A DNA stretch of 64,000 nt, taken from contig VGTL01000006.1 of assembly GCA_016874675.1 (NCBI GenBank), forward strand, positions 9,009-73,008, read 5' to 3'. Source of the DNA: Methanobacteriota archaeon (GTDB taxonomy: Archaea; Thermoplasmatota; DTKX01; VGTL01). Below, piece by piece: positions 31,888-55,188 of this stretch (its first letter is position 1; every line of letters begins with the position of its first letter). Both the position numbers and the translations under genes were made by a program. Under the pieces are notes generated by a model that worked only from the letters and a program-made list of their open reading frames with translations, had not been told where the DNA came from and ran no database searches.

Positions 31888-33777
31888 ATGGTCGCCAAGG
31901 CGAAGGTCACGTTCCTCCCCTCCGGCCGGACCATCGAGGTCGCCCCCGGGACGACGCTCTACAAGGCCGCCGTGGAGGCGGGGGTGGAGCTCAACTCGAT
32001 CTGCGGCGGCAAGGGCAAGTGCGGCAAGTGCCGCGCGCAGGTCCACGGCAAATACGAGCTCGACCACCTCCATCCCCTTTCCCGGGAGGAGCTGGAATCG
32101 GGTAGCTTCCTGGCCTGCAGCACGCGCGTCAGGGGCGACGTCCGGGTGTTCATTCCGGACACGAGCACGGCCGGCAAGGGACAGATACTGACCTCCTGCG
32201 CGGCCACCTGCCGCCGCCCCGACCCGCCGGTGCAGAAGGCGGTCCTGGAGCTGCCCCGCCCCACGCTCAACGACAATCTGGCCGACCTGGAGAGGATGCT
32301 CCGGGGCCTCCGGGTGAAGCGGCTGGGCGAGCCCCACCTGGACATGGCGGTGCTGCAGGAGCTCCCGGTGACCGTCCGCAAGAAGGACTGGCGGGTCACC
32401 GCCTCCTTCATCAGGTGCGGCGGGTGCTCGCGCATGGTGAGGGTCGAGCCGGGGGACACCACGGAGATGAACCACGGGCTGGCGGTGGACATCGGCACCA
32501 CCACGGTGGTGGTCCAGCTCCTCAATCTCCTGGACGGCCGGACTATCCGCACCGCGGCGGCCTACAACCGCCAGATCTCCTGCGGGGAGGACGTCATATC
32601 CCGCATCGACTATGCCGCCGAGAACGGGCCGGGGACCCTCAGGAGACTGGTTCTCGAGACCATCAACATGCTGATAGCGGACGTCTGCGTCGAGGTCCCG
32701 CCCCGCGAGGTGACGAGCGCCTGCGTCGCCGGCAACACGACTATGGTCCACCTCTTCCTGGGGCTGGACCCGACCAACATCAAGCTCGACCCGTACATCC
32801 CCGTCACGAACTCGCCACCGCCGCTGACCGCCCGGGCGACGGGGCTCGGCCTCCACCCCGAATCACCGGTCATCATCGTGCCGGGCCGGAGCGGCTACGT
32901 GGGCGGCGACATCACCGCCGACGTGATAGCCTCGGGGATGCACCGGCGCAGGGAGCTCGCCCTGCTCATAGACGTCGGAACGAACGGCGAGGTCGTCCTC
33001 GGCAACGACCAGTGGCTCGTGGGCTGCTCGTGCTCGGCCGGGCCCGCCTTCGAGGGGGGCGAGGTGCGCTTCGGCATGAGGGCCGCGGAGGGCGCGATAG
33101 AGCGGGTCAACGTCGGCAAGAGATTCTGGCTCAACTTCTGCACGATAGGCGGGACGAAGGCGCGGGGCATCTGCGGCTCCGGGCTGATCGACCTCATCTC
33201 CGGCCTCTTCACGAGGGGGGCGCTGGACAAGGCCGGCCGGTTCCGCGACGCACTGCCGGGGCGCATCCGGCCCGGGACCGAGGGCAGGGAGTTCGTGGTG
33301 GCCTCCGGGAGCGAGACGGCCTCGGGCTCGCCAATCGTGCTCACCGAGGCGGACATAAAGAACATAATCCGGACCAAATCCTCGCTCTACGCCGCCGCCT
33401 CGGTCCTGGTCAACTCGCTGGGCCAGAGGATGGAGGACGTCCAGAAGGTCTACATCTGCGGCGGGTTCGGGAACTACCTCAACATAGACAAGGCGGTCTC
33501 CATCGGCCTTCTGCCCGACCTCCCGCGCAAGAGGTTCAGGTTCATGGGCAACGGGGCTCTGGCCGGGGCGGCGCTCTGCGTGCTCTCCAGGCGCTCGGCG
33601 GCCGAGGCGGCCAAGGTGGCGGCCAAGATGACCTACATGGAGCTCTCGGTGAACGCCTCTTTCATGGGCGAGTTCACCTCGGCGCTCTTCCTGCCCCACA
33701 CGGACGAGCGGCTTTTCCCGTCGGTGGGCCGCCACCCCCCGGGGTACGATGAGACCAAGCACGACCGGTCGGAGTGA
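31888..33777 (+). CDS. Reductive activator of corrinoid Fe-S protein (RACo; 2Fe-2S ferredoxin + ASKHA ATPase)
   Basis: An N-terminal plant-type 2Fe-2S motif 'CGGKGKCGKC' is followed by a roughly 500-aa ASKHA/DUF4445 domain. The 629-aa length fits RACo, and the gene lies next to Wood-Ljungdahl genes. Confidence 0.75.
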   Translation: MVAKAKVTFLPSGRTIEVAPGTTLYKAAVEAGVELNSICGGKGKCGKCRAQVHGKYELDHLHPLSREELESGSFLACSTRVRGDVRVFIPDTSTAGKGQILTSCAATCRRPDPPVQKAVLELPRPTLNDNLADLERMLRGLRVKRLGEPHLDMAVLQELPVTVRKKDWRVTASFIRCGGCSRMVRVEPGDTTEMNHGLAVDIGTTTVVVQLLNLLDGRTIRTAAAYNRQISCGEDVISRIDYAAENGPGTLRRLVLETINMLIADVCVEVPPREVTSACVAGNTTMVHLFLGLDPTNIKLDPYIPVTNSPPPLTARATGLGLHPESPVIIVPGRSGYVGGDITADVIASGMHRRRELALLIDVGTNGEVVLGNDQWLVGCSCSAGPAFEGGEVRFGMRAAEGAIERVNVGKRFWLNFCTIGGTKARGICGSGLIDLISGLFTRGALDKAGRFRDALPGRIRPGTEGREFVVASGSETASGSPIVLTEADIKNIIRTKSSLYAAASVLVNSLGQRMEDVQKVYICGGFGNYLNIDKAVSIGLLPDLPRKRFRFMGNGALAGAALCVLSRRSAAEAAKVAAKMTYMELSVNASFMGEFTSALFLPHTDERLFPSVGRHPPGYDETKHDRSE

Positions 33778-33915: not shown

Positions 33916-34833
33916 TCAGACGACCGGTCGCGGCAGCAGCCCGGCGCCCTCGACGATCTCGGGGACCTTCTCCTCCCAGGCGATGGCCATCACGTGGACG
34001 CCGTGGACGCCCTTCATCTCCCGGAGCTGCTTCACGGTCTCGATGCAGATCCTGATGCCCTCGGCCTTGGGGTCGGAGGCCTTCTCCATTCGGGAGATGA
34101 CGGAATCGGGCATTATGATGCCGGCCACCTTGTTCTTCATGTACTTGGCGACCTTTGCGGACTTGAGCGGGGTGACCCCCCCCAGGATGTGCACCTTCCC
34201 GTCCAGGTGGCGGGACCGGACGTCCTCCATGAACCTCTCGAACCGGTCGATGTCGTAGATGACCTGCGACTGGATGAAGTCGGCCCCGGCCTTGATCTTC
34301 TTGGCCAGCCGGTGGACGCGGAACTCGTGCGGCGTGCCGAAGGGATTTTCGGCCGCGCCCAGAAAGAGCTGGGGCGCCTTGGTCAGCGCGTCGGCGCCCA
34401 GTATCTTGCCCTCGTCGCGCATGGTCTTGAAGAGGAGGAGCTCCTGTATCGAATCGACGTCGAAGACGTTCTTCGCCCCGGGGAGGTTGCCCAGCGTCTG
34501 GTGGTCGCCGGTGAGGCAAAGCAGGTTCTTGATGCCCAGGGCGGAGGCCCCGAGGACGTCGCTCTGCATGGCGATGCGGTTGCGGTCCCGGCACACCATC
34601 TGCATGACGGGCTCGACGCCCTCCTGGAGAAGGATGATGCTCCCGGCCATGCTGGAAAGGCGGACCACGGCCGTCTGGTTGTCCGTGACATTGAAAGCGT
34701 CGGCCTTGCCCTTGAGCTCCCGGGCCCAGTGGCGCATGTGCTCCCCGTCCGCGCCCTTGGGCGGGCCGATCTCGGCCGTGACGGCGAAACCGCCGGAGGA
34801 GAGGACCTTCTCGAGGTTGCTGCCCGCTTTCAT
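33916..34833 (-). CDS. metF: Methylene-THF reductase, small acetogen type
   Basis: The protein is a roughly 300-aa TIM-barrel MTHFR-like sequence. Its start overlaps the metV stop by 4 nt. Confidence 0.75.
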   Translation of the reverse strand: MKAGSNLEKVLSSGGFAVTAEIGPPKGADGEHMRHWARELKGKADAFNVTDNQTAVVRLSSMAGSIILLQEGVEPVMQMVCRDRNRIAMQSDVLGASALGIKNLLCLTGDHQTLGNLPGAKNVFDVDSIQELLLFKTMRDEGKILGADALTKAPQLFLGAAENPFGTPHEFRVHRLAKKIKAGADFIQSQVIYDIDRFERFMEDVRSRHLDGKVHILGGVTPLKSAKVAKYMKNKVAGIIMPDSVISRMEKASDPKAEGIRICIETVKQLREMKGVHGVHVMAIAWEEKVPEIVEGAGLLPRPVV

Positions 34834-35525
34834 CTCTTCACCTCCTTCCTGGCCGGCTCGTTCCAGTCCTCATCCTTCTTCTGGTACCTCACCCCGCCGT
34901 CCCGCGATGACCTCCAGTCCCTGGGGGGCACTATCCCGTCGATCCACTCGTTCCGGTCGAGCTGCCTGAGGCGGTCGTGGATGAGCTGCCAGGCGCAGGG
35001 GATGTCGTCGCGCACCTCGCACTTCCCGTCGTGGGAGCCGCCGCAGGGCCCGTTCAGGAGGCTCTTGCTGCACCGGGCGACGGGGCAGATCCCGCCGGTC
35101 TCCCCGAGCACGCAGTCGCCGCAGGCCTGGCAGGCCTCACGGAGCCAGCCCTCGTCGCGGTGCTCGTATCCCAGGAACACGGTGTTCTGCCCGGGGAAGA
35201 CCGGCACCTCCGGGTACTGCAGGGAGAGAAGCTGCACGCCCAGCGCGCAGCTCAGCGAGAGCACCGCGTCCCGGCCCTTCACGAGCTCGGGATAGTTCTG
35301 GGCGAGCAGGGCGGTGTCGCACTGCTTGCTCACCGTCCCGGCGACGCAGTCGACCTCGCCCCCCTTTCTCCCGAGCGCCATCTCGAGGAGTGTCCGGTAG
35401 GTCTGGGCCTCCCGGAGGCCCCTGGGCGGCTGGGTGCAGCCGTCGCAGCCCAGTACCAGTATCCTGCGCCGGCCCTGGAGCATCCTCATCATCTCCTCGA
35501 GCGGTTTCTCCTTCGTCACTATCAT
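34830..35525 (-). CDS. metV: MetV (MTHFR-associated zinc-finger/C-terminal-domain protein)
   Basis: The protein is about 230 aa and Cys-rich (CDGC, CQACGDC, CPVARC). It is located between the Fe-S subunit and metF, as in acetogen metVF clusters. Confidence 0.65.
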   Translation of the reverse strand: MIVTKEKPLEEMMRMLQGRRRILVLGCDGCTQPPRGLREAQTYRTLLEMALGRKGGEVDCVAGTVSKQCDTALLAQNYPELVKGRDAVLSLSCALGVQLLSLQYPEVPVFPGQNTVFLGYEHRDEGWLREACQACGDCVLGETGGICPVARCSKSLLNGPCGGSHDGKCEVRDDIPCAWQLIHDRLRQLDRNEWIDGIVPPRDWRSSRDGGVRYQKKDEDWNEPARKEVKR

Positions 35526-36697
35526 TTCCCACCACCCCCGGGCGGGGCCGCGCCCAGCTCCCTGATGAACGCCTCCACCTCGGATTCGAACTGGCCCAGG
35601 TACTTGGGCGTGACCGCGGAGACCCGCATCCGCCCGTCAATGCCCAGCTGCCGCAGGAGGCCACGGGCGCGGGCGGCGTGGGCCTGGGCCCTCTTGTCGC
35701 CCCGGTTCTCCTGCTTGCACATCTCGTCCACGCAGGTGGCCAGGAGCACCCCGTCGACGCCGTTCCTGAAGGCCTCCAGGATGTGCAACACATCGCCCCT
35801 CCCGGAGCAGGGCATCGGCAGCACCCGGAGCGCCCCGCCCTCCACCGGCCTGTCGAAGTGGAGGTACTCGGCCCAGCGGCACACCATCGCGAGCACCTTC
35901 GGCTTCCCGGGGGCGGCCGCGAGCTCCTTCACTGCCTTCATGAGCTCCTCGTGCTCCGAGCCCTTCATCCGGATGGCCAGGGCCGGGCACTCCGCCACGC
36001 AGATGCCGCAGCCCTTGCACAGGTTGGCGTCGACGGCGGCGGTCCCCGTGACGAGCCTGGGGGCATGATAGGGGCAGACCCAGACGCAGTTGCCGCAGGC
36101 GATGCACCGGTTGGAGTCCAGCTCCGCCCTGACGACCCCCTTCTTCAGGTCCAGCATCGAGGAATCGTAGCCCAGGTCCTCGAGCATCAGCCGGGCCGCC
36201 TCGAGCTTCTGCTGGGCCACCGGGCTGCCCTTCTTCATGCGGCAGTACTCGTCCTCGCAGACCAGGATGTGGACCTTCTGGAGGCCCACCTCCGCGCACC
36301 GGATGTAGAACTGGAGGGGGACCCGGCCGATGCACGGGAGGGACAGGAAGGCGAGCTCCTTCTCCTCCCAGAGCCCCTCGACGTCCCTCCTCTCGGGAGC
36401 GCTGCCGCGGCAGCTCAGCACCAGCGTCGACGGGTTGCCGGCCACTGCGGCGTCCAGCATCGAGTTGAGGACATCGATGTTGTAGTGGGCAGTGGTGATC
36501 TGGCCCGACGGGCAGGCCGAGTAGCAGATGCCGCAGGCCACGCACTTCTTCGGGTCCACCTTCACCTTCTTCGTCTCCGGGTCCTGGCTGATCGCCTCGA
36601 ACGGGCAGGCGGAGAGGCAGTAGACGCAGTTCCCGCAATTCTCGACATGAATCTCCATGAAGAACTTCGGCTCGGCTTCCATGTTTTCTCCCCCCAC
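35522..36697 (-). CDS. Polyferredoxin (4 x [4Fe-4S]) fused to MvhD/FlpD-like domain
   Basis: Two 2x(CxxCxxCxxxCP) pairs are present (CGNCVYCLSACP/CVACGICYSACP and CIACGNCVWVCP/CKGCGICVAECP). The C-terminal 'VLAMVCRWAEYLHFD...PCSGRGDVLHILEAFRNGVDGVLLATCVDEMC' resembles MvhD. Confidence 0.7.
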   Translation of the reverse strand: MGGENMEAEPKFFMEIHVENCGNCVYCLSACPFEAISQDPETKKVKVDPKKCVACGICYSACPSGQITTAHYNIDVLNSMLDAAVAGNPSTLVLSCRGSAPERRDVEGLWEEKELAFLSLPCIGRVPLQFYIRCAEVGLQKVHILVCEDEYCRMKKGSPVAQQKLEAARLMLEDLGYDSSMLDLKKGVVRAELDSNRCIACGNCVWVCPYHAPRLVTGTAAVDANLCKGCGICVAECPALAIRMKGSEHEELMKAVKELAAAPGKPKVLAMVCRWAEYLHFDRPVEGGALRVLPMPCSGRGDVLHILEAFRNGVDGVLLATCVDEMCKQENRGDKRAQAHAARARGLLRQLGIDGRMRVSAVTPKYLGQFESEVEAFIRELGAAPPGGGGK

Positions 36698-36807: not shown

Positions 36808-37590
36808 TCAGACCGCGAAAATGTCGTTGCCGGAATAGACATTGAACCGCCTGCCCCTGAGGAAGCCCACCATGCCCAGGTCGTACCTTCGCGCCAGCCT
36901 GACGGCCTGGTAGAGCGGGGCGCTTCGCGACACCACGAGGGGGATGCGGCACCGGACGCACTTCATCGCGATGTCCATGCCTATCCGGCCGGTGACGAAC
37001 AGGACGCGGTCGTCGAGGGGGCGGCCGGCGAGGAGCTCCCGCCCGATGACCTTGTCGACGGCGTTGTGACGGGAGATGTCGGGCGCCCGGCAAATGACAT
37101 CGGCGTCGCGGTCCAGGAGGAAGGCGTAGTGGTAGCCGCCGGTGCGCTCGAACTCGGTAAACAGCGGGGCGGTCGATTTCTGGATGTCAAGCACGGTTTC
37201 TGGCTCGAGGCGGAAGCCCTTCGCCCTTCTCTCGAGCCGCTCCCCGACGCGCCTGTACTCGGGCGTCCTGCGCCCGCAGTCGGCCCATATGACGCCAAAG
37301 TTCCGCTTGAGGAACGGGAGGCGGCCTTCGAGCCCCTTGATGCGCACCCGGACACCGGCCATCCCCCCCCGCCGCTCCTGCCGGTAGAACGTGATGTCGG
37401 CCGCGGACGCTATCAGCCCCTCGGAGCGCAGGTTGCCGTACACGAACTCGCGCAGCATCCCAGGCGATATTACGGTGTCGAACCCGACCCCCTCGCCCAG
37501 GTCGACGTGCAGCACGAGCTCTTCGGCCAGATGGTCCCGCAGAAGGGTCTCCCGGCCGCGTTCATAACGTCGTATCTGAAGACGCTTCAT
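36808..37590 (-). CDS. fdhD: Formate dehydrogenase accessory sulfurtransferase
   Basis: The protein is 260 aa. 'TGGYHYAFL' and 'ISRHNAVDKVIG' match the FdhD family. Confidence 0.8.
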   Translation of the reverse strand: MKRLQIRRYERGRETLLRDHLAEELVLHVDLGEGVGFDTVISPGMLREFVYGNLRSEGLIASAADITFYRQERRGGMAGVRVRIKGLEGRLPFLKRNFGVIWADCGRRTPEYRRVGERLERRAKGFRLEPETVLDIQKSTAPLFTEFERTGGYHYAFLLDRDADVICRAPDISRHNAVDKVIGRELLAGRPLDDRVLFVTGRIGMDIAMKCVRCRIPLVVSRSAPLYQAVRLARRYDLGMVGFLRGRRFNVYSGNDIFAV

Positions 37591-37707: not shown

Positions 37708-38157
37708 GTGAGGAAGGTCAGCTTCGCTCCTGAGATATGCGTCACCTGCGGGACCTGCTCGATCGCCTGCGCGGTCGTCCACTCGATGTCGGGGGACCCC
37801 ACCGGCGCGGCGCTGGAGGTGCCCGTTCCGCGGGCGCGGGTGCACATCGCGGAGAAGGGGGGCAAGCTCAAGCTCGTCCGCTGCCGCAACTGCCGGAAGG
37901 CCAAGTGCATTGCGGCCTGCCCCGAGAAGGCCATAAAGAAGAACGCCCAGGACTACGTGCTCATCGACGAGAGGCTATGCAACGGGTGCTGGAAGTGCAT
38001 CGAGGCCTGCCCGTTCCAGGCGATCGTCAAGTCGGATGACGAGAAGGTGGCACAGAAGTGCGACTCCTGCCTGGACCGGCCGGTGCCGGCCTGCGTGGAG
38101 TCGTGCAACGTGAAGGCGCTCAAGGTCGAGGAAGTGGAGATGGAAGAGGAGGGATGA
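37708..38157 (+). CDS. cooF: CooF-type 4Fe-4S ferredoxin (CODH electron-transfer subunit)
   Basis: Multiple CxxCxxCxxxCP motifs are present, the length is 149 aa, and the gene lies immediately upstream of CODH. Confidence 0.75.
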   Translation: MRKVSFAPEICVTCGTCSIACAVVHSMSGDPTGAALEVPVPRARVHIAEKGGKLKLVRCRNCRKAKCIAACPEKAIKKNAQDYVLIDERLCNGCWKCIEACPFQAIVKSDDEKVAQKCDSCLDRPVPACVESCNVKALKVEEVEMEEEG

Positions 38158-38161
38158 GGAG

Positions 38162-41100
38162 ATGGGTGTGAATTCCAAATGTTCGGTTGACCCGGCGATA
38201 AACAAGATGGCGACCGTGGCGGCGGCCTGCGGCTGCGACACCACGTTCGACAGGACGGAAGCGATGAAGCCCCAGTGCGGCTACGGCGAGCTGGGCCTGT
38301 GCTGCCGCATCTGCATGCAGGGGCCCTGCCGCATCAACCCGTACGGCGCCGAGCCCAGCGTGGGCATATGCGGCGCCAGGGACTACACGATGGTCGCCCG
38401 CAACATCATCCGCATGGCCGCGGCCGGCGCGGCCGCGCACTCCGACCACGGGCGGCACATCGTCCACACCCTGCACTCGGTGGCGGAGGCGAAGGCCCCC
38501 GCCTACCAGATAAAGGACAAAAGGAAGCTCCGCAAGGTGGCCGCCAGGCTGGGACTGCAGGTGGAGGGAAAGAAGGATGACGAGCTGGCGCTCAGGGTGG
38601 CCGAGATCGCCCTCAACGACTATTCCAGCCAGGGGGAGGAGGTCACCGCCTTCGTCAAGGCCTATGTGCCGGAGAAGCGGCTCAAGCTCTGGGACTCGCA
38701 CGACGTCCTCCCGACCAACATCGACCGGGGCATATGCGAGGTCATGCACCGCAGCACGATGGGCTGCGACGCCGACCCTGTCCCGCTGATATTCGGCGGC
38801 ATCAAGGCGGCGCTGGGCGACCTCACCGGCGAGTTCATCAGCACCAACATCTCGGACATACTCTTCGGCACGCCCAGGATAATCAAGGCCGAGGCGAACA
38901 TGAACGTCTTCGACGTCGACGCCGTCAACATCGTCGTCCACGGCCACAACCCGATAATGAGCGAGGTGATGGTGGACGTGGCGGGCGAGCTCGAGGGCGA
39001 GGCCAAGGCCGCCGGGGCGAGGCACGGCGTGGCCATATCTGGCATCTGCTGCACGGCCAACGAGCTCCTGATGAGGCACGGCATCCCCATCGCCACGAAC
39101 TTTTTGGGCCAGGACCTGGCCATCGTGACCGGAGTGGTGGACGCCATGGTCGTGGACTACCAGTGCATCATGCCCGCGCTGGCACCCACCGCCCAGTGCT
39201 TCCACACCAAGCTCATCTCCACGATGCCGATAACCCGCGTCCCGGGCGACATACACATCGAGTTCAACGAGAGGACGGCCAAGGAGGGCGCCCGCCAGAT
39301 AGTCCGGCTGGCCATCGAGGCCTTCAAGCACCGCGACCCGACCAAGATCCAGATACCGGAGATGAAAGCATCCGTCGTTGCGGGCTTCAGCTGCGAGGCG
39401 CTCGAGGACCTGCTGGCCAAGCTCAGCCCCGCCGACCCGTGGGGCTGGCTCGTCGAGCGCATCCGGGACGGCCGCATCCAGGGCGTGGCCCTCATCGCCG
39501 GATGCAACAACCAAAAGAACCTGCACGACGAGTGCCACAACACCGTGGCCATGGAGCTTGCCAAGAACAACGTCCTCGTGCTCGCCACCGGCTGCGCCGC
39601 CCAGGCGTACGCCAAGCACGGCCTGCTGTCGCAGGAGTTCGCCGAGAAGTACGCCGGCGACACCCTCAAGAAGGTCCTCGGGGAGATGGGGCAGGCCGCC
39701 GGGCTCAAGTCGCTGCCGCTCGTGCTGCACATGGGCTCCTGCGTGGACAATTCCCGGGCCCAGGAGCTGGTCGCCACGCTTGCCTCGAAGTTCAACGTGG
39801 ACATCAGCCAGCTCCCCATCGTGGCGAGCGCCCCCGAGGCGATGAGCGAGAAGGCCGTCGCCATCGGCACCTGGGCCATCACGATGGGCTGGCCCACCCA
39901 CGTCGGCGTGTACCCGTACATCAAGGGCTCGAAGCTCGTGAACGAGGTAGCCGAGAAGACCGCCCGCGACGTGTACGGCGGGTTCTTCATCTTCGAGCCC
40001 GACGCCGCCGTCGCCTCGAGGAAGCTCGTCAACATCGTCAAGCACCGCCGCTGGAGGATGGGCATCGGCCCGGAGCCCGTCGGCATCGACGGCTACGGCC
40101 AGGTCGCCGGCACCGAGAAGAGGACCACCCAGCGCCAACTCTACAAGATGGCCATCGATGGCGCCATAATCGCCACGGGCTACGCCGAGATACTGCTCAA
40201 CCGGGCCATCCACAAGCACGGCGCTGGTCACGAGGTCTCCTACCCTGGCACCGCCTACGGCCTGCCCTGCATCGACGCCTGGACCGGGGTCGAGGTCAAG
40301 AAGCTTGCGGACCTGCCGCCCCTCCTGGGCGCCGTCCGCGGACGCATCAAGGAGGAGTACACCTACGAGAACGCCTTCGCCGCCGGCGAGGCCGTCCTCT
40401 ACTCGGCGGAGATAGTCGAGGCGCTCAAGTACCTCGACGGGACGGACCCCTACGAGGACAAACGCCCGTACACCGGATTCGTGGGCGACCCCATCCTGCG
40501 CAAGCTGGGCATCGCATTCGTGGACGACACGATACCGGCCGCGGCAGTCTTCGTCGGCAAGGCCAAGGACCCCAAGGCGCTGGTCAGGCTCGTCCGCGAG
40601 TGCCAGGAGAAGGGCATGCTGATAATCGCCACCTTCGACATCATCCAGCAGCTCCAGGACAACGGCTACCGGTTCGACGAGGGCAACCACTACGGCCTGG
40701 ACGTCATGCTCTACCCCGTCGGCGAGTTCACGCAGGCCATCCACGGCGCCTCGTTCGCCACCCGGGCGGCCCTGGCCTTCGCCGGAATAAAGCGCGGCGA
40801 CCGCAAGGCGCTCTACGAGTACCTGCACAAGCGCCCCCGCGTCTTCGTGGTCCAGCTCGGGCCCCTCGACGACATCAAGGTGGCCGCGGAGTTCGGCGTG
40901 CTCTTCATGGGCAGCCCGACCATCACGGACCAGGACATCGAGGAGATCCCCGACAGGTACGTGATGGAGAAGGACTACACGAAGATACTGCAGCGCGCGA
41001 CCGAGCTTAGGGACATCAAGTACAAGCTGACCAAGGTGCCCATACCGGTGCTCTACGGGCCCTCGTTCGAGGGCGAGTCCATCCGCAAGCAGGACATGTA

Positions 41101-42271
41101 CCTCGAGGCCGGGGGGACGCGCACGCCGGCCCTCGAGTACGTCCGCATGGCCCCGGCCGAGGAGGTCGAGGACGGGAAGACAACCTTCATCGGCAAGGAC
41201 GTGGACGAGCTCCCCGAGGGCAAGGCGATACCTCTGGGCATATTCGTGGACGTCTACGGCCGCAAGATGCAGAAGGACTTCGAGAGCGTGCTCGAACGGC
41301 GGATACACCAGTTCACGAACTTCATAGAGGGCGGGTGGCACACCGGCCAGCGCAACCTCATCTGGATCCGGCTGAGCAAGAACTCGGTCAAGCAGGGCCT
41401 CAAGCTCAAGCACCTGGGCACGGTCCTGCACGCCAAGTTCCACGCCGACTTCAGCGGCATCGTCGACCGCGTGCAGGTGACCGTGGTCACCGACGAATCG
41501 GAGCTCAAGAAGCGGGCCCCGGCTGCCATGAAGGCCTACGACGAGCGCGACGCCCGCATACGCGGCCTGACCGACGAGGCGGTGGACACCTTCTACTCCT
41601 GCACGCTGTGCCAGTCTTTTGCGCCCAACCACCTGTGCGTCATCTCGCCCGAGAGGCTGGGGCTCTGCGGCGCCATCAACTGGCTGGACGCCAAGGCCTC
41701 GTTCGAGATAGCGCCCTCCGGGCCCAACCGGCCCTGGAAGAAGGGCGCCACCGTCGACGAGGTCAAGGGCCAGTGGGAGGGCGTCAACGCCGGCGTGAAG
41801 GAGCTCTCGCGGGGCAAGATAGAGCGCTTCAACTCCTACAGCATCATGGAGGACCCGATGACCTCGTGCGGCTGTTTCGAGTGCATCCTGGCGATGGTGC
41901 CCGAGGCCAACGGGATACTCATCATAAACCGCGAGTACCCGGGCGAGACGCCCATCGGGATGAAGTTCTCCACGCTCGCCGGCCAGGTGGGCGGGGGCAA
42001 CCAGGTGCCCGGGTTCCTGGGCGTCGGAAGGCAGTACATCACCAGCAAGAAGTTCATCTCGGCGGACGGCGGGTTCCAGCGGGTGGTGTGGATGCCCAAG
42101 ATGCTCAAGGACGCCCTGCGCGACCGGCTGGTCGAGCGCGGCAAGGAGGTGGGCGATCCCGACTTCGTCCAAAAGATCGCCGACGAGACGGTCGCCACCA
42201 CCACAGACCAGCTCATGGAGTTCCTGCAGAAGGTGAACCACCCGGCGCTGGGAATGAACCCGATGATGTAG
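38162..42271 (+). CDS. Fused carbon monoxide dehydrogenase (CooS/AcsA) - acetyl-CoA synthase (AcsB) single polypeptide, 1369 aa
   Basis: The N-terminal roughly 635 aa carry the CooS signature 'CGYGELGLCCRICMQGPCRI'. From about nt 40060-40140 the sequence aligns with the bacterial AcsB N-terminus (GAIIATGYAEILLNRAIHKHG...YPGTAYGLPCI...VEVKKLADLPPLL) and continues to the A-cluster motifs 'SCTLCQSFAPNHLCVISPERLGLCGAINWLDAKA' and 'SCGCFECI'. The ORF is uninterrupted. Confidence 0.85.
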   Translation: MGVNSKCSVDPAINKMATVAAACGCDTTFDRTEAMKPQCGYGELGLCCRICMQGPCRINPYGAEPSVGICGARDYTMVARNIIRMAAAGAAAHSDHGRHIVHTLHSVAEAKAPAYQIKDKRKLRKVAARLGLQVEGKKDDELALRVAEIALNDYSSQGEEVTAFVKAYVPEKRLKLWDSHDVLPTNIDRGICEVMHRSTMGCDADPVPLIFGGIKAALGDLTGEFISTNISDILFGTPRIIKAEANMNVFDVDAVNIVVHGHNPIMSEVMVDVAGELEGEAKAAGARHGVAISGICCTANELLMRHGIPIATNFLGQDLAIVTGVVDAMVVDYQCIMPALAPTAQCFHTKLISTMPITRVPGDIHIEFNERTAKEGARQIVRLAIEAFKHRDPTKIQIPEMKASVVAGFSCEALEDLLAKLSPADPWGWLVERIRDGRIQGVALIAGCNNQKNLHDECHNTVAMELAKNNVLVLATGCAAQAYAKHGLLSQEFAEKYAGDTLKKVLGEMGQAAGLKSLPLVLHMGSCVDNSRAQELVATLASKFNVDISQLPIVASAPEAMSEKAVAIGTWAITMGWPTHVGVYPYIKGSKLVNEVAEKTARDVYGGFFIFEPDAAVASRKLVNIVKHRRWRMGIGPEPVGIDGYGQVAGTEKRTTQRQLYKMAIDGAIIATGYAEILLNRAIHKHGAGHEVSYPGTAYGLPCIDAWTGVEVKKLADLPPLLGAVRGRIKEEYTYENAFAAGEAVLYSAEIVEALKYLDGTDPYEDKRPYTGFVGDPILRKLGIAFVDDTIPAAAVFVGKAKDPKALVRLVRECQEKGMLIIATFDIIQQLQDNGYRFDEGNHYGLDVMLYPVGEFTQAIHGASFATRAALAFAGIKRGDRKALYEYLHKRPRVFVVQLGPLDDIKVAAEFGVLFMGSPTITDQDIEEIPDRYVMEKDYTKILQRATELRDIKYKLTKVPIPVLYGPSFEGESIRKQDMYLEAGGTRTPALEYVRMAPAEEVEDGKTTFIGKDVDELPEGKAIPLGIFVDVYGRKMQKDFESVLERRIHQFTNFIEGGWHTGQRNLIWIRLSKNSVKQGLKLKHLGTVLHAKFHADFSGIVDRVQVTVVTDESELKKRAPAAMKAYDERDARIRGLTDEAVDTFYSCTLCQSFAPNHLCVISPERLGLCGAINWLDAKASFEIAPSGPNRPWKKGATVDEVKGQWEGVNAGVKELSRGKIERFNSYSIMEDPMTSCGCFECILAMVPEANGILIINREYPGETPIGMKFSTLAGQVGGGNQVPGFLGVGRQYITSKKFISADGGFQRVVWMPKMLKDALRDRLVERGKEVGDPDFVQKIADETVATTTDQLMEFLQKVNHPALGMNPMM

Positions 42272-42293
42272 GCGATACAAGGGGGAAGCAGGG

Positions 42294-43250
42294 ATGCCGA
42301 TCCAGTTTCCGGCGGAGAAGTACACTGGAAGGATTGCCGAAATAACCCTGGGCGCGACCAAGGAGGAGGGCGGCACCCGCGCGCGCAAGGTGACCGTGGG
42401 GGGCCAGGCGGCCCTGAACTTCCACGGCGCGGACGGGGCCTACCCGAACCCTCCCGCGGTGGCCATGGAGATCTACGACGTCGCTCCGGAGCTCCCCGAG
42501 GAGGTCGTCCGGGCCCTCGGGCCCGTCCTGGACAGGCCGGCCGCCTGGGCCAGAAAGTGCGTCGAGGACTGGCACGCCGACCTCGTCTGCCTGAAGCTCA
42601 AGGGCACCAACCCCGAGGCGGAGAACCGGAGCCCCGAGGACGCGGCCAGGACGGTGGAGGAGGTTCTCAAGGCGGTCGGGGTGCCGCTCGTCGTCTACGG
42701 CTCGGGGGCCGAGGAGAAGGACACCCGGGTGATGCAGGTCGTGGGCGAACTCCTCAAGAAGGAGAACTGCGCCATAGGCCAGGCCGAGAACGAGAAATAC
42801 AAGTCGATCTCGGTGGCGTCCATGGGCTTCGGCCAGAGCCTGGTGGCGTTCTCCAACCTGGACATCAACCTGGCCAAGCAGCTCAACATCCTGCTCACCG
42901 ACTTCGGCGTGAAGCGGGAGCGCATCCTCATGGACCCGCTGCTCGGCGGCCTGGGCTACGGCCTCGACTACTCCTACTCGGTCATCGAGCGCATCCGGCT
43001 TGCGGCGCTCGCCGGGGACACGATGCTCCAGAACCCGATACTCGTGGACACATCGATCGCCTGGAACGCCCGCGAGGCCACGATAGGCGAGCTCGCCGCG
43101 GGCGGCGACGCCGCCCGGCGCGGCCCGGCCTGGGAGGCCACCACCGGCATTGCATCGATGGTCGCCGGCGCCGACCTCCTCGTCATGCGCCACCCGGAGG
43201 CGGTCAAGATGGTGAAGGGCGCGATAGCCGAGCTCAAGGGAGGTGCCTGA
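42294..43250 (+). CDS. acsD: Corrinoid iron-sulfur protein small subunit
   Basis: The protein is 318 aa and TIM-barrel-like. Its operon position lies between the ACS gene and acsC, which it overlaps by 8 nt. Confidence 0.7.
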   Translation: MPIQFPAEKYTGRIAEITLGATKEEGGTRARKVTVGGQAALNFHGADGAYPNPPAVAMEIYDVAPELPEEVVRALGPVLDRPAAWARKCVEDWHADLVCLKLKGTNPEAENRSPEDAARTVEEVLKAVGVPLVVYGSGAEEKDTRVMQVVGELLKKENCAIGQAENEKYKSISVASMGFGQSLVAFSNLDINLAKQLNILLTDFGVKRERILMDPLLGGLGYGLDYSYSVIERIRLAALAGDTMLQNPILVDTSIAWNAREATIGELAAGGDAARRGPAWEATTGIASMVAGADLLVMRHPEAVKMVKGAIAELKGGA

Positions 43251-44580
43251 GATGGGACTGACGGCCCTCGAGATATACAAGCACCTGCCCAAGAAGAACT
43301 GCACCGAGTGCGGGGTGCCCACCTGCCTGGCGTTCGCCATGCAGCTCGCCTCGCTGAAGGTCAAGCTCGAGGCGTGCCCGTACGTGACGGAGCAGGCCAA
43401 GGCGGCGCTGGCCGCCTCCTCGGCCCCGCCCATCCGGCTGGTGAAGATCGGCACGGGGCCCAACGAGGTGGGCATCGGGGACGAGGTGGTGCTCTTCCGC
43501 CACGACAAGACCTTCTTCCACCCGACGGCGCTCGCCGGGATGGTGCTGGACACCTCTCCCGAGGCGGACATCGCCGCCGGGGCCGCAGGGCTCAACTCGC
43601 TCCGGACGGAGCGCGTGGGGCTCATGATGAAGCTGGACATGATAGCCGTGAGGGCGGCGGCCGGCGACCCGGCGCGGTTCGCCCACGCCGTGTCAGTGGT
43701 CAGGTCGAAGTCGGACCTGCCGCTCGTGCTCGTTTCCGACAGCGCCGCCGCCATGGAGGCGGGACTGAAGGTGGCCGGCAAGGACCGGCCGCTGATACAC
43801 GCGGCGACCGCGGCCAACTGGGAGGCGATGACGAAGCTCGCCAAGGACAACAAGTGCCCGCTGGCGATAACGGCCCCCGGCCTGGACGCCCTCTCGGACC
43901 TGGCGGCCAAGGTGAAGGGCGCCGGCGTCGAGGACATCGTGCTCGACATCGGCGAGATGCCCATGGGCAAGGCGCTCGAGACGCTCACGGCCCTGCGGCG
44001 GCTCACCATCAAGAAGAGCAACCGCGCGGTGGGCTACCCGGTGCTCATGCTGGTCAAGGACGACGAGCTCGCGCCCATGCGGGCCGCGCTGGGCGTGATG
44101 AAGTACGCCTCCGCGGTCATCCTGGAGAGGGTGGACCCGGCGACGCTGTACCCCCTCATGACGCTGCGCCAGAACATCTACACCGACCCGCAGAAGCCGA
44201 TACAAGTCAAGGCCGGCATCTACGAGATCGGCAAGCCGACCGACGGCTCGCCGCTGATGTTCACGACCAACTTCTCGCTGACCTTCTTCACCGTGCAGGG
44301 CGACATCGAGAAGAGCAAGAGCCCGGCGTACCTCATGGTGCTGGACACCGAGGGGCTCTCGGTGATGACGGCGTTCGCCGCCGGCAAGCTCACGCCCGAG
44401 ATGGTGGAGAAGATGCTCAACGAGAGCGGGATCAAGGCCAGGCTCGGGCACAGGAAGCTCATCATCCCCGGCATCGTGGCGCGCATGAGCGGGAAGCTTT
44501 GCGAGCTCACGAGCTGGGAAGTGGTCGTGGGCCCGCGGGACTCGTCGGGGATACCGTCGTTCATGAAGACCTGGAAGTGA
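43243..44580 (+). CDS. acsC: Corrinoid iron-sulfur protein large subunit
   Basis: An N-terminal [4Fe-4S] motif 'KKNCTECGVPTCLAFAMQLAS...CPY' is present and the length is 445 aa. Confidence 0.8.
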   Translation: MPEMGLTALEIYKHLPKKNCTECGVPTCLAFAMQLASLKVKLEACPYVTEQAKAALAASSAPPIRLVKIGTGPNEVGIGDEVVLFRHDKTFFHPTALAGMVLDTSPEADIAAGAAGLNSLRTERVGLMMKLDMIAVRAAAGDPARFAHAVSVVRSKSDLPLVLVSDSAAAMEAGLKVAGKDRPLIHAATAANWEAMTKLAKDNKCPLAITAPGLDALSDLAAKVKGAGVEDIVLDIGEMPMGKALETLTALRRLTIKKSNRAVGYPVLMLVKDDELAPMRAALGVMKYASAVILERVDPATLYPLMTLRQNIYTDPQKPIQVKAGIYEIGKPTDGSPLMFTTNFSLTFFTVQGDIEKSKSPAYLMVLDTEGLSVMTAFAAGKLTPEMVEKMLNESGIKARLGHRKLIIPGIVARMSGKLCELTSWEVVVGPRDSSGIPSFMKTWK

Positions 44581-44599: not shown

Positions 44600-45379
44600 A
44601 TGATAGTGATAAGCGAGAGGGTGAACGGCCTGTTCAAGTCCGTGGGCAAGGCCATAGACGACCGCGACAAGAAATTCCTCCAGGACCTTGCGCTGGACCA
44701 GGTCAAGGCCGGGGCCAACATGCTGGACGTGAACACCGGGCCCGGAGTGGACAGGCCCGAGCAGATAATGAAGTGGATGGTGCAGACCATACAGGAGGTC
44801 ACTGACGTCCAGCTCTCGATAGACGCGCCGGTGCCGTCCGTGATAGAGGCCGGGCTCGAGGTCTGCAAGGGGCGGGCGCTCATCAACTCGACCACGGCCG
44901 AGCAGAAGAAGATGGCATCCCTCTTCCCGCTCGCCAAGATGTACAACGCCGAGATAATCTGCCTCACCCTGGACGAGAAGGGCATCCCCAACGACGCCAA
45001 CAGCCGGTGCGAGCTGGCCCTGACCATGATAACCAACGCGATGGAGTACGAGATAACGCCCGACCGCATCTTCCTGGACCCGCTGGCGCTTCCGGTCGGG
45101 GCGGCACAGGACCAGGGCATGAAGGTGCTCGAATCGCTCAAGCAGTTCAAGACGCTCTGCGACCCGGCGCCGAAGACCACCGTAGGCCTGAGCAACGTGT
45201 CCAACGGGACCAAGGAGAGGCCGCTCATCAACCGGACCTTCCTGACCATGCTCATGGCCTACGGTCTGGACTCGGCCATACTGAACCCGTCCGACACGGA
45301 CCTCATGAACGCCCTGCGCACCTCGGAGATACTGCTCAACCAGAAGCTCTACTGCGACAGCTATCTGCGCGCTTGCTGA
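44600..45379 (+). CDS. acsE: Methyl-THF:corrinoid iron-sulfur protein methyltransferase (pterin-binding)
   Basis: The protein is 259 aa. 'LINERVNG'-like 'VISERVNG', 'MLDVNTG' and 'INSTTAE' match the pterin-binding MeTr family. Confidence 0.8.
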   Translation: MIVISERVNGLFKSVGKAIDDRDKKFLQDLALDQVKAGANMLDVNTGPGVDRPEQIMKWMVQTIQEVTDVQLSIDAPVPSVIEAGLEVCKGRALINSTTAEQKKMASLFPLAKMYNAEIICLTLDEKGIPNDANSRCELALTMITNAMEYEITPDRIFLDPLALPVGAAQDQGMKVLESLKQFKTLCDPAPKTTVGLSNVSNGTKERPLINRTFLTMLMAYGLDSAILNPSDTDLMNALRTSEILLNQKLYCDSYLRAC

Positions 45380-45387: not shown

Positions 45388-45480
45388 CAGTCGGTCAAGG
45401 GGACGTGCTGTCGCAATTGGTTAAGGGGACGGGTTGTTGCTATCGGTTGGGGGGATGGGGACGAGGAGGGGGGCGGGGAT
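45388..45480. repeat. Three tandem copies of about 26-bp 'CGCAATTGGTTAAGGGGACG'-like motif downstream of acsE / cooC (convergent)
   Basis: Unit 1 'cagtcggtcaaggggacgtg', unit 2 'ctgtcgcaattggttaaggggacggg' and unit 3 'ttgttgctatcggttggggggatggggacgagg'. G-tracts follow. Confidence 0.65.
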
Positions 45481-46226
45481 CAGGTGTAGGAGGAGACCAT
45501 CCGCTCGACGGCCTTCCTGAACGGAGACGACGGCGGGAGGTCGGCCACGGAAAGGCCCTTCTCCGATATCTGGCATAGGGCCTCGTCCTCGGGTATCGGC
45601 TCCAGGGAGGCGAAGCCGCCCCCGGATGCAAGCTCCCCCAGGCTCCCGGGCAGCCCGCCGGAGCGGTTGACCACCAGGACGAACTTGCCCACGCCCAGCT
45701 TCATCTCCTCGGCCAGCTTCTTTATCCGGACCGCTGTCATGATCCCGGTGCGCGTCGGGTCCGAGAGGATGAACATGACATCCACGTTGCGCGTCGTTCT
45801 GCGCGAGAGGTGCTCCATACCGGCCTCGTTGTCGATGACGACGAAGGCGTACTTCCGGGCGATGTTGTCCAGTATCGTGCGCAGCAGGTTGTTCACGTAG
45901 CAGTAGCAGCCGGGGCCCTCCTGGCGGCCCATCACCAGGAGGTCGAACCCGTCGCCCTCGGTGATGGCCTGCTGGATTCTGAGCGTGATGAACTCCGGCT
46001 TCGATATGCCGGCCGGGAGGCTGTCCATGGTCTTTGACAGGTCCTCGCGTATCGCGCCGACGCTGGTGTCCGCCTTCACCCCGAGCTTCTCGTCCAGGTT
46101 CGTGTTCGGGTCGGCGTCCACCGCGAGGAGGAGCTTCTTTTTGGAGGAGAGCAGATGCACGAGGAGCGCCGCAAGCGTGCTCTTGCCCACTCCGCCCTTG
46201 CCGGCCACGGCCAGCGTCGTCGTCAT
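45480..46226 (-). CDS. cooC: CODH nickel-insertion ATPase CooC/AcsF
   Basis: A deviant Walker A 'VAGKGGVGKST' and a 'CYCY' motif are present. The length is 248 aa. Confidence 0.85.
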   Translation of the reverse strand: MTTTLAVAGKGGVGKSTLAALLVHLLSSKKKLLLAVDADPNTNLDEKLGVKADTSVGAIREDLSKTMDSLPAGISKPEFITLRIQQAITEGDGFDLLVMGRQEGPGCYCYVNNLLRTILDNIARKYAFVVIDNEAGMEHLSRRTTRNVDVMFILSDPTRTGIMTAVRIKKLAEEMKLGVGKFVLVVNRSGGLPGSLGELASGGGFASLEPIPEDEALCQISEKGLSVADLPPSSPFRKAVERMVSSYT

Positions 46227-52640: not shown

Positions 52641-52695
52641 TAGTATACCTGTCGGGGGGTTCTTCCGGCGGGCCAGAAGAGGAGTGGTGTGGGGG

Positions 52696-54369
52696 ATGAA
52701 GAAGGACATCGAGATAGCCCAGGAAGCGAAGGTCAAGCCGATAACCGAGATCGCCAAGGCCGCGGGTATACCGGACGAGTACCTGGAGCCCTACGGCAAG
52801 CACATCGCCAAGATCAACCTGGCGTACTGGGAGAGGCTCAAGGACAGGCCCAACGGGAAGCTGATCTGGACCACCGCCATAACCGCCACGGCCGCCGGCG
52901 AGGGAAAGACCGTGACCTCGGTGGGCCTCATCCAGGCCTTCGGCAAGATAGGCAAGAAGGTCATGGGCGCCCTCCGCGAGCCCTCGCTCGGGCCCGTCTT
53001 CGGCATCAAGGGCGGCGCCACGGGAGGCGGCTACTCCCAGCTCTACCCGATGTGGGACATCGACCTCCACTTCACGGGTGACATCCACGCGGTGGGGGCG
53101 GCGCACAACCTGCTGAGCGCGATGGTGGAGAACCACATCACCAAGAAGAACGAGCTCCAGATAGACCCCACGCGCATCGTGTGGCGCAAGGTCATGGACA
53201 TGAACGCCCGGGAGCTTCGCAAGATAATCGTCGGCCTGGGCGGCCGTGCCAGCGGCGGGGTGCCCCACGAGAGCGGCTTCGACATCACCGTCGCCTCGGA
53301 GATATCGGCCATACTGGCGCTCTCGGAGAACCTCAAGGACCTCAAGCAGAGGCTCTCCAGGATGGTGGTCGGCTACACCTACGACGGAAAGCCGGTCACC
53401 GCGGGCCAGCTCGGGTGCGTGGGCGCCATGTCGCTCCTGCTCAAGGACGCCATCAAGCCCAACCTGGTCCAGACCTTCGAGGGCCAGCCGACCCTCATCC
53501 ACGGCTTCCCGTTCGCCAACATCGCCCACGGGAACAACAGCATAATCGCCACCCGCATGGCATTGAAGATGGCCGACTACGTCGTCACCGAGGCCGGGTT
53601 CGCCGCGGATTTGGGCATGGAGAAGGCGTTCGACATCGTCTGCCGGCAGTCCGGGCTCAAGCCCGACTGCGTGGTGCTGGTCGCCACCATCCGCGCCCTC
53701 AAGATGCACGGCGGGCTCTCGAAGGACCTCATCGAGAAGCCCAACAGGGAGGCGCTCGAGAAGGGCTTCGTGAACCTGGACAAGCACATCGAGAACATGC
53801 TCAAGTTCGGGGTGCCGGTGGTCGTGGCCATCAACCGCTTCCCGTCCGACACGGACGAGGAGATGAAGCAGGTCAAGGCCCACTGCGACAAGGTGGGCGC
53901 CATGGCCGCCTTCTCGTCGGTGTTCATGGACGGCGGCAAGGGCGGCGTGGAACTGGCCGAGGCGGTCATAGAGACCATCAAGAAGAAGCCCCAAAAGTTC
54001 AAGGTGCTATACGACGAGAAGCTGCCCATCAAGGAGAAGATAAGGACCATCGCCACCGAGATCTACGGGGCCAAGGACGTCGCGTACGTGGGCACCGCCG
54101 AGGCCGATATCAAGGCCATCGAGGCCGCCGGGAACGACAAGCTGCCCATCTGCATGGCCAAGACCCAGCTGTCGATAACCGACGTGCCGGACCTCAAGGG
54201 CGCCCCCAAGGGCTGGACGCTCACCGTGCGCGAGGTGCGGCTTTCGGCCGGGGCCGGGTTCATCGTCCCGCTCACCGGCGAGATGATGACCATCCCGGGG
54301 CTCCCGACCAGCCCGGCGGCGCTGAAGATCGACATCGACGACAAGGGCTACATCACGGGGCTCAACTGA
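52696..54369 (+). CDS. fhs: Formate--tetrahydrofolate ligase
   Basis: 'TPAGEGKTVTSVGL'-like 'TAAGEGKTVTSVGLIQAF' and 'EPSLGPVFGIKGGA' match the FTHFS family. The length is 557 aa. Confidence 0.9.
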   Translation: MKKDIEIAQEAKVKPITEIAKAAGIPDEYLEPYGKHIAKINLAYWERLKDRPNGKLIWTTAITATAAGEGKTVTSVGLIQAFGKIGKKVMGALREPSLGPVFGIKGGATGGGYSQLYPMWDIDLHFTGDIHAVGAAHNLLSAMVENHITKKNELQIDPTRIVWRKVMDMNARELRKIIVGLGGRASGGVPHESGFDITVASEISAILALSENLKDLKQRLSRMVVGYTYDGKPVTAGQLGCVGAMSLLLKDAIKPNLVQTFEGQPTLIHGFPFANIAHGNNSIIATRMALKMADYVVTEAGFAADLGMEKAFDIVCRQSGLKPDCVVLVATIRALKMHGGLSKDLIEKPNREALEKGFVNLDKHIENMLKFGVPVVVAINRFPSDTDEEMKQVKAHCDKVGAMAAFSSVFMDGGKGGVELAEAVIETIKKKPQKFKVLYDEKLPIKEKIRTIATEIYGAKDVAYVGTAEADIKAIEAAGNDKLPICMAKTQLSITDVPDLKGAPKGWTLTVREVRLSAGAGFIVPLTGEMMTIPGLPTSPAALKIDIDDKGYITGLN

Positions 54370-54993: not shown

Positions 54994-55188
54994 ATGTGCG
55001 AATCCACCGCCTACCTGGTCAAGGGCAAGAGGAAGGAGGAGTTCATGAAGGACGTCGCCCGCATCGAGGTCCGGAAGGGCTCCTTCCTGTTGCGCGACAT
55101 CCTGGGCGATACAAAGGAGCTGAAGAAGGCCGTCCTGAAGGAGATCAACCTGATGGGCCACGAGATTGTTTTCGAGGCGGTCGGATAG
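54994..55188 (+). CDS. cooT: CooT-family small nickel-binding CODH accessory protein
   Basis: The protein is 64 aa and begins 'MC', with the conserved Cys2 Ni ligand. Its overall pattern is similar to CooT as recalled (from memory), including a DILG motif. It lies immediately upstream of a cooC gene. Confidence 0.55.
   Translation: MCESTAYLVKGKRKEEFMKDVARIEVRKGSFLLRDILGDTKELKKAVLKEINLMGHEIVFEAVG

Follow-up and report, generated by a model that had tools for sequence, protein, structure and literature searches.

A fused cooS-acsB gene and its predicted single-chain CODH/ACS in an archaeal contig

The fused gene and its modules

The DNA analysed here, referred to as the window, is a stretch of 64,000 nucleotides (positions 9,009 to 73,008, forward strand) of contig VGTL01000006.1 in the Methanobacteriota archaeon assembly GCA_016874675.1, and all coordinates are those of the window. 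It carries a fused cooS-acsB gene, in which the catalytic subunits of carbon monoxide dehydrogenase (CODH) and acetyl-CoA synthase (ACS) are encoded as one polypeptide. The Wood-Ljungdahl pathway has CODH/ACS as its central enzyme, which is also a textbook example of substrate channelling between two subunits. We find that the window protein belongs to a family of single-chain CODH/ACS that is widespread and monophyletic and has been seen so far only in archaea; the family is catalogued and biochemically uncharacterised. More than 100 fused proteins match it at 53-95% identity over at least 98% of the length, and the window protein shares with this archaeal CooS-AcsB family the single open reading frame (ORF), the N-terminal position of CooS and the archaeal host. 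Judging from the sequence, the ORF very probably encodes a genuine and functional single-chain CODH/ACS.

The ORF listing and the translation show one ATG-start ORF at 38162..42271 on the plus strand, 1369 aa long and with no internal stop. This agrees with an earlier reading of the DNA from its letters alone (the sequence-only reading), and each of the motifs quoted there, CGYGELGLCCRICMQGPCRI, GAIIATGYAEILLNRAIHKHG, CTLCQSFAPNHLC...LGLCG and SCGCFEC, is found in the ORF. The GC content of the window is about 66%, and long spurious ORFs are therefore common. An antisense ORF of 1422 aa (38120..42388, minus strand) covers the entire fusion gene and is a shadow ORF of high-GC coding DNA, not a gene.

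Table 1 Window coordinates of the fused cooS-acsB gene, its modules and the neighbouring genes, with the evidence for each assignment.
Feature	Coordinates	Strand	Evidence and remarks
RACo, reductive activator of corrinoid protein	31888..33777	+	Pfam Fer2, RACo_linker, Raco_middle, RACo_C_ter
metF	33916-34833	-	Pfam MTHFR; methylene-tetrahydrofolate reductase module, 33916..36697
metV	34830-35525	-	Pfam DUF5981; methylene-tetrahydrofolate reductase module
MvhD/FlpD-polyferredoxin	35522-36697	-	Pfam FlpD + Fer4; methylene-tetrahydrofolate reductase module
fdhD, formate dehydrogenase maturation protein	36808..37590	-	Pfam FdhD-NarQ
CooF-like 2x[4Fe-4S] ferredoxin	37708..38157	+	Pfam Fer4_11, Fer4_7; ends 4 nt before the fusion gene
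Fused cooS-acsB gene	38162..42271	+	1369 aa + stop codon; single ORF, Pfam/NCBIfam domains, third-position GC content (GC3) 0.94
Ni-CODH module (CooS, clade-F-like), residues 1-635	38162..40066	+	CODH-II alignment, TIGR01702, AlphaFold2 (AF2) model
Inter-module linker, residues 636-655, GPEPVGIDGYGQVAGTEKRT	40067..40126	+	no alignment to any solved CODH or ACS chain
ACS domain A1, residues 656-953	40127..41020	+	aligns to A1-only construct 9fu4_B 16-311; Pfam CODH_A_N 677-758
ACS domain A2, residues 954-1234	41021..41863	+	aligns to A2-A3 construct 3git_A from residue 954
ACS domain A3, residues 1235-1369	41864..42268	+	aligns to A3 constructs 3s2x_A, 5gol_A at 1235-1369
acsD, corrinoid Fe-S protein small subunit	42294..43250	+	Pfam CdhD, 318 aa
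acsC, corrinoid Fe-S protein large subunit	43243..44580	+	Pfam FeS + CdhD, 445 aa
acsE, methyl-tetrahydrofolate:corrinoid methyltransferase	44600..45379	+	Pfam Pterin_bind
cooC/acsF-type Ni-insertion ATPase	45480..46226	-	Pfam CbiA, AAA_31
NuoE-like, formate dehydrogenase complex	46267-46815	+	Pfam 2Fe-2S_thioredx
NuoF-like, formate dehydrogenase complex	46817-48649	+	Pfam Complex1_51K + NADH_4Fe-4S
FdhA with NuoG-like N-terminus	~48652-51315 (start approximate)	+	Pfam Fer2_4, Molybdop_Fe4S4, Molybdopterin, Molydop_binding
fhs, formate-tetrahydrofolate ligase	52684..54369	+	Pfam FTHFS, E=3e-259
Second cooC-type ATPase	55166..55978	+	Pfam CbiA + related families

By sequence-level criteria, the N-terminal half is a CooS-type Ni,Fe-CODH. 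The NCBIfam model TIGR01702 (CooS, anaerobic CODH catalytic subunit) is matched along its whole length by residues 8-635 (profile 1-621/621, 700 bits, cutoff 478), and Pfam Prismane covers residues 46-615 (E=1e-161), so that a chance match can be disregarded. Residues 7-635 align to positions 7-634 of the 636 residues of C. hydrogenoformans CODH-II (5fle_X) with a match in all ligand columns, while residues 6-638 align to M. thermoacetica AcsA 26-661. The C-cluster ligands (H262, C296, C335, C448, C478 and C527), the D-cluster cysteines (C39 and C47), the B-cluster cysteines (C48, C51, C56 and C70) and the catalytic acid-base residues H93 and K564 are all present, and the segment KPQCGYGELGLCCRICMQGPCRINP...GICGA, which holds the B- and D-cluster cysteines, matches CODH-II column for column. 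We take His261, Cys295, Cys333, Cys446, Cys476, Cys526, His93 and Lys563 to be the CODH-II counterparts, and presume for the CODH and ACS ligands the residue roles of the established CODH-II and ACS literature. Across 89 fused homologues the CODH ligands are invariant or near-invariant. The AF2 model of the module superposes on CODH-II with a template modelling score of 0.97 and a root-mean-square deviation of 1.6 A.

Before the D-cluster motif stand the extra cysteines C7, C23 and C25 (residues 1-36, window 38162-38270), in a pattern that corresponds to the 'Cys3 motif' of Inoue 2019 (PMC6344411). This motif is variable, with at least one extra cysteine in 59 of the 89 members and the form C-x-C-W-D-x2-C in one clade, and is no strict family-defining trait. 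The extra cysteines could form an additional metal site.

The C-terminal half is, again by sequence-level criteria, a bacterial-type AcsB. The corresponding NCBIfam model, NF040764, is covered in full by residues 665-1369 (profile 1-705/705, 978 bits, cutoff 800), and Pfam places CODH_A_N at 677-758, CdhC at 961-1114 and ACS_CODH_B_C at 1126-1369. Residues 655-1369 align to C. hydrogenoformans ACS 19-732/732, and residues 660-1369 to M. thermoacetica AcsB 21-729/729. The sequence-only reading had assigned this part to the long bacterial type, and the full cover of NF040764, both alignments and a cdhA model score far below its cutoff (57 bits vs 781) sustain that assignment to the three-domain enzyme.

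In characterised enzymes, A1 is the CODH-docking domain and bears the CO tunnel. Domain A2 holds the [4Fe-4S] ligands of the A-cluster, C1147, C1150, C1159 and C1169 (C-x2-C-x8-C-x9-C), and its motif YSCTLCQSFAPNHLCVISPERLGLCG aligns to C. hydrogenoformans ACS. Domain A3 holds the Ni-binding C1236-G1237-C1238 within SCGCFE, which is identical in C. hydrogenoformans ACS. The A-cluster cysteines and SCGCFE are invariant in the 89-sequence alignment of the fused family. An intein that measures about 520-540 aa and includes a LAGLIDADG homing endonuclease is carried by the fused homologues P0072 and P0108 (about 1895 aa) and by the unfused AcsB P0172; in the fused proteins BLAST places the insertion at the A-cluster ligand Cys1150, the second cysteine of C-x2-C (about nt 41609), and for P0172 the Pfam match points to a site close to where the ACS C-terminal domain begins.

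The switch from CODH to AcsB had been located at about nt 40060-40140, and alignment to solved structures narrows it to nt 40067-40126. In the 89-sequence alignment the linker stands after the invariant RRW (629-631) and before the conserved first AcsB helix, and it is the least conserved part of the fused protein (MGIGPEPVGIDGYGQVAGTEK is an example of a peptide spanning it). The equivalents of W631 and G667 lie 27-38 residues apart, at a distance that depends on the clade, and are in frame in every homologue. Bacterial AcsA extends about 19-20 aa past the CODH core, and AcsB has about 15-20 residues before its first aligned helix. Together these two free tails are longer than the fused connector, which has 8-19 unaligned residues; this would fit termini that already lie near each other in the complex.

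An AF2 prediction that spans CODH, linker and A1 (residues 1-960) and draws on 71 family sequences has a mean predicted local distance difference test (pLDDT) of 88.8 and a predicted template modelling score (pTM) of 0.91. For a chain of two modules, such a pTM would imply confident docking of A1 on the CODH of the same chain; the Foldseek search of the Protein Data Bank compares single chains. The linker, whose structure the sequence-only reading had proposed to predict, is modelled as ordered, with blocks at pLDDT 88-92 and no helix. The prediction thus implies that the linker is an ordered strap and no floppy tether.

The alternative that survives best accepts the fused gene and holds that the mature enzyme is split, either by cleavage of the linker or by separate synthesis of AcsB from the internal Met633, which would yield a conventional alpha2beta2 enzyme. 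The low conservation of the linker would suit such a split, the NCBI pipeline took Met633 as a start, and a GGAGG-like string (TGG AGG) stands directly before its ATG. However, the CooS part has no stop codon, and ribosomes starting at 38162 must read through; the GGAGG string abuts the ATG without spacing and arises from conserved W-R codons; and Met633 itself is not conserved, with Leu in most family members. An internal start at Met633 was therefore rejected as a conserved feature. As for cleavage, the ordered linker of the AF2 model offers no exposed loop, and no conserved cleavage motif is visible in the family alignment. We consider a split enzyme improbable, and prefer the reading in which both modules remain in one chain.

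Gene neighbourhood and proposed function

The fusion gene is surrounded by a complete bacterial-type tetrahydrofolate Wood-Ljungdahl set (Table 1), in which AcsC, AcsD, AcsE and RACo all lie within 7 kb of it; a DUF3786 protein is also encoded in the neighbourhood of the cluster. The CooF-like ferredoxin is likely the electron partner of the fusion protein, and the same gene precedes the fusion in the loci L085-L087 and L090. Directly downstream, acsD is found at the same place in L081, L082, L089 and L090, the order fusion-AcsD-AcsC is kept in four sampled relatives, and the position of CooC is conserved in L081, L082 and L089. Domain scans of the window proteins revealed no further CODH or ACS gene, nor did the proteins scanned include one with a CO_dh (CdhB) domain.

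Based on these assignments and on the known enzymes, a mechanism can be proposed. Ni-CODHs all dimerise, and the CooS module would most likely do the same, giving a (CooS-AcsB)2 homodimer as the counterpart of the bacterial alpha2beta2 enzyme. Electrons from the CooF-like ferredoxin would reduce CO2 to CO at the C-cluster, and the CO would travel through an internal tunnel, by way of the A1 domain joined covalently to CODH, to the Ni-Ni-[4Fe-4S] A-cluster, where it would be condensed with CoA and a methyl group to acetyl-CoA. The methyl group would derive from methyl-tetrahydrofolate, being loaded by AcsE onto the corrinoid Fe-S protein AcsCD and from there transferred to the A-cluster. The whole reaction could also run in reverse, as acetyl-CoA cleavage, and the direction of flux given here is the one we infer by analogy.

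In this mechanism the linker would run from the C-terminal end of CODH to the N-terminal end of A1. Because the link is made at A1, which sits rigidly docked on CODH in the known structures, A2 and A3 would still be free to open and close. The sequence-only reading had expected a covalent fusion to fix the stoichiometry and the tunnel. A fixed 1:1 stoichiometry and a permanent CO tunnel are plausible consequences of the architecture, and any selective advantage of the fusion would likely consist in this obligatory ratio together with a tunnel interface that is formed co-translationally or comes pre-assembled.

A second alternative sees in the fusion protein a paralogue that has degenerated or been repurposed, and that has kept only one of the activities or has no role in acetyl-CoA synthesis or cleavage. 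Some CODH clades have indeed lost ligands (Inoue 2019, PMC6344411), and the variable N-terminal Cys motif could be read in the same sense. On the other hand, all C-, B-, D- and A-cluster ligands and the catalytic residues are conserved across the family, AcsC, AcsD, AcsE, RACo, CooC and CooF are syntenic in five sampled relatives, and the window offers no second CODH or ACS gene. A paralogue that has left the pathway is thus very improbable, and the conserved ligands and the gene context argue for a functional single-chain CODH/ACS.

Sequence quality, distribution and origin of the fusion

The same fusion protein is encoded on 8 contigs (JGI 3300020083 and 3300020084; Logan SRR7989281 and SRR7979709), which represent at least four samples and two assembly pipelines. 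Four of the 8, compared as DNA, differ by 0-1 nt across the 4110-nt gene. Among 5.8 billion proteins searched, full-length fused homologues of 1350-1380 aa make up more than 110 clusters (at 90% identity), drawn from JGI, ENA, NCBI and Logan, all with the four domains and at 53-95% identity to the query; one of these homologues sits on a closed chromosome of 1.97 Mb (CP070732.1). No homopolymer longer than 3 nt was found in the junction DNA, and GC3-rich codons run on across the cooS-acsB junction.

An assembly or sequencing error, in which a lost stop codon or a frameshift joined neighbouring genes, might be suspected, since in bacteria cooS and acsB are often neighbours in the same orientation, with a short spacer that one error could bridge, since the NCBI annotation of the contig has only the AcsB part and since a few truncated relatives have aberrant tails, but such an artefact is essentially excluded by the 8 contigs, the more than 110 divergent clusters, the closed genome, the coding-type junction and linkers that vary in length and stay in frame.

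The NCBI record is a matter of annotation choice on the same sequence. The only entry listed on the contig for this enzyme is a 737-aa 'CODH/ACS subunit beta' (MBM4248199.1), which corresponds to residues 633-1369 of the ORF (window 40058-42271). Because this entry starts at the internal Met633, the public annotation shows neither the CODH half nor the fusion. The names given to homologues in IMG and NCBI are inconsistent ('acetyl-CoA synthase', 'CODH catalytic subunit', 'subunit alpha/beta'), so that surveys which count cooS and acsB separately can misreport these archaea.

How common the fusion is was also assessed at the junction itself, as the sequence-only reading had suggested. In a HMMER search with query residues 400-1000, exhaustive over 1.84 billion cluster representatives (50% identity), the junction was spanned only by P0005, the representative of the fused family, and by the fragment P0142, all other top hits being one-sided. 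A contig scan with the fused protein retrieved 80 loci, all of them bacterial acsA-acsB loci and none above 48% identity, which served as the unfused comparison set, and found no close archaeal relative. None of the 62 bacterial loci that carry both genes has them fused in one ORF, in accordance with the earlier statement that they are separate in bacteria. Of 58 bacterial loci, 23 have the two genes on one strand with cooS immediately before acsB, and the distance from the cooS stop to the first fusion-aligned AcsB residue is 46-321 nt (median 94).

The archaeal identity of the host, as claimed by the sequence-only reading, first looked doubtful because the neighbourhood is a bacterial-type Wood-Ljungdahl cluster. 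It is confirmed by archaellum genes in the window (KaiC-type FlaH at 6879-7697; FlaD/E and FlaC at 8505-9713), by an archaeosine tRNA-guanine transglycosylase (TGT-C2-PUA) and by the NCBI deposition of the window proteins as 'MAG: Euryarchaeota archaeon' (MAG, metagenome-assembled genome), with locus tags FJ149_01780 to FJ149_02015. Scans of the window for tRNAs and Rfam families gave nothing informative on taxonomy. All 13 fused homologues with NCBI names are from archaeal MAGs, labelled Methanomassiliicoccales, Thermoplasmata/Thermoplasmatota, 'Methanobacteriota' and, in one case each, Halobacteriota and Bathyarchaeia. Archaeal markers also stand beside the fusion in four relatives: RpoK with S2, a tRNA-intron endonuclease with an A-type ATPase, HTH_10, and LSM.

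The two halves of the fused proteins probably share one history. Their pairwise identities within the family co-vary (r=0.855; Mantel test, 0/999 permutations), and in neighbour-joining trees of both halves the fused sequences are monophyletic, with no unfused member inside the clade. The nearest unfused relatives have cooS and acsB as neighbours, and the called genes are 25 and 98 bp apart. Monophyly in both halves suggests a single fusion of an adjacent cooS-acsB pair. On these rough trees, the fusion probably arose by a one-time loss of the cooS stop in an adjacent and co-oriented pair of a bacterial-type acs cluster, and was then probably inherited within a Thermoplasmatota-like archaeal radiation.

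The locus of the nearest unfused relative (L083; GCA_041695355.1, JBGFRB010000015.1, 1-18697) holds an archaeal-type cdh cluster and, directly after it, a bacterial-type cluster, so that one contig has the two CODH/ACS types next to each other. The former encodes CdhA (767 aa), CdhB, CdhC (395 aa) and CdhD/E. The latter encodes a DUF166-CooS fusion of 898 aa, AcsB (738 aa, 25 bp downstream), AcsC, RACo, AcsD and AcsE.

A more far-reaching proposal is that the covalent CooS-AcsB link is a single ancient and archaea-specific innovation, which arose at or soon after the entry of the bacterial-type acs cluster into a Thermoplasmatota ancestor and which is functionally required. We regard this as a tentative and rather unlikely reading. 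If it were true, the link might secure assembly and a leak-free CO tunnel without the bacterial assembly factors, and the variable N-terminal Cys motif might add a metal site or a point of electron entry. In that case the family would provide a single-chain CODH/ACS of natural origin whose kinetics or gating are altered, together with a ready scaffold for heterologous expression.

Some points weigh against a monophyletic family of intact single chains. The trees are neighbour-joining only; the comparison sequences in them are bacterial and representative unfused ones, and unfused archaea are thinly sampled. Proteolysis of the linker after translation keeps a small probability. A few family members, P0114-P0117, are truncated (830-1100 aa) and have tails that look out of frame, and they are best read as frameshifted calls; a separate 'CooS-A1 only' architecture was rejected for them on account of these tails.

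Other genes of the window were recorded in passing. Directly upstream of the archaellum genes lie large proteins of 907 and 1358 aa (55-6864, plus strand), and a third large protein, of 1037 aa, is encoded at 59469-62582 (plus strand). The Pfam scan covered the 907- and 1358-aa proteins of these three and gave no match, and the 1358- and 1037-aa proteins are singleton clusters at 90% identity. An FtsZ homologue at 29486-31120 (minus strand) is called with 544 aa and has its tubulin domain from residue 211, which reflects either a long N-terminal extension or an over-extended start at the first in-frame GTG. Two adjacent STAND-like proteins with an AAA_16/AAA_22 ATPase and TPR (22744-25419, 891 aa, and 25501-27990, 829 aa, both on the plus strand) lie in the part of the window with the highest GC content (about 73%). 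Genes at 12750-16490 (minus strand) encode a fumarate reductase/succinate dehydrogenase-like flavoprotein of 573 aa, a CCG-domain (HdrB-like) protein and a 2Fe-2S/4Fe-4S subunit, and resemble a thiol:fumarate reductase-type module.

Comparison with known systems and earlier records

The fusion is not without precedent in the literature. Suppl. Table 1 of Inoue et al. 2019 (Front Microbiol 9:3353, PMC6344411) lists two proteins as 'fused with ACDS beta subunit', OGS41472.1 (Euryarchaeota archaeon RBG_16_62_10, 1275 aa) and OGS44063.1 (RBG_13_57_23, partial). Like the window protein, these are clade-F Ni-CODH fusions from uncultured euryarchaeal MAGs, the likeness being one of table entries and not of alignment. 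Unlike these two rows, which are classed as 'others' and left unanalysed, the window protein is full length and stands in a complete gene cluster. Full-text searches, within the literature that could be searched, found no discussion of a CooS-AcsB fusion, of its distribution or of its consequences, and the fusion is not mentioned in the Wood-Ljungdahl papers on Thermoplasmatota and Methanomassiliicoccales or in a 2026 preprint on the genomic context of CODH. The novelty that the sequence-only reading had implied for the fusion therefore stands only in part: the architecture is the norm in its lineage and was tabulated in 2019, while no paper that discusses it was found.

The family is of interest in several respects. 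A natural single-chain CODH/ACS, conserved throughout an archaeal clade, is a built-in experiment on whether stoichiometry and tunnel integrity limit the enzyme, and with one gene for both Ni centres it is an easier object for structural studies and for expression in other hosts. The fusion is, furthermore, a clean genetic marker for the inter-domain transfer of the bacterial-type pathway.

Full-length modules, cluster ligands and domains A1-A3 are common to the window protein, Moorella thermoacetica AcsA/AcsB (1MJG, 1OAO) and C. hydrogenoformans CODH-III/ACS (7ZKJ), and the partners AcsC, AcsD, AcsE, RACo and CooC and the tetrahydrofolate methyl branch are likewise those of the bacterial alpha2beta2 systems. 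In contrast to these systems, the enzyme here is one polypeptide, in which a join of about 20 residues replaces the C-terminal tail of AcsA (about 20 aa) and the N-terminal tail of AcsB (about 15-20 aa). It also differs in its archaeal host and in the extra N-terminal Cys3 motif.

With methanogens' acetyl-CoA decarbonylase/synthase (ACDS, CdhABCDE), the window protein shares the overall chemistry and a homologous A2/A3 core, to which TIGR00316 cdhC (960-1363) and 9c0s_E (962-1363) match. Unlike in ACDS, the CODH half is not of the CdhA type, as judged by the cutoff of TIGR00314 cdhA (scores above), the ACS half has the domain A1, absent from CdhC, and the methyl carrier pathway is of the tetrahydrofolate type (Fhs, MetF, AcsE) instead of the tetrahydromethanopterin type. 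Whereas CdhC binds CODH only transiently (PMC13370988), the link is covalent here. An AcsB-type ACS has been published for Bathyarchaeota, Methanomassiliicoccales and Thermoplasmatota (PMC13370988), and tetrahydrofolate-type Wood-Ljungdahl genes have been published for relatives of Methanomassiliicoccales and for Thermoplasmatota orders.

Subunits of the CODH/ACS system have repeatedly been joined by gene fusion. Other examples are AcsD-CooS (Desulfomonile tiedjei WP_014808137.1; P0244, 1122 aa), AcsB-AcsD (P0166, 1209 aa), DUF166-CooS (P0120) and a fusion of a pyridine-nucleotide-disulfide oxidoreductase (flavoprotein) with AcsB (P0202, 1024 aa). The archaeal CooS-AcsB proteins differ from all of these in that they alone join the pair of catalytic subunits between which the CO tunnel runs.

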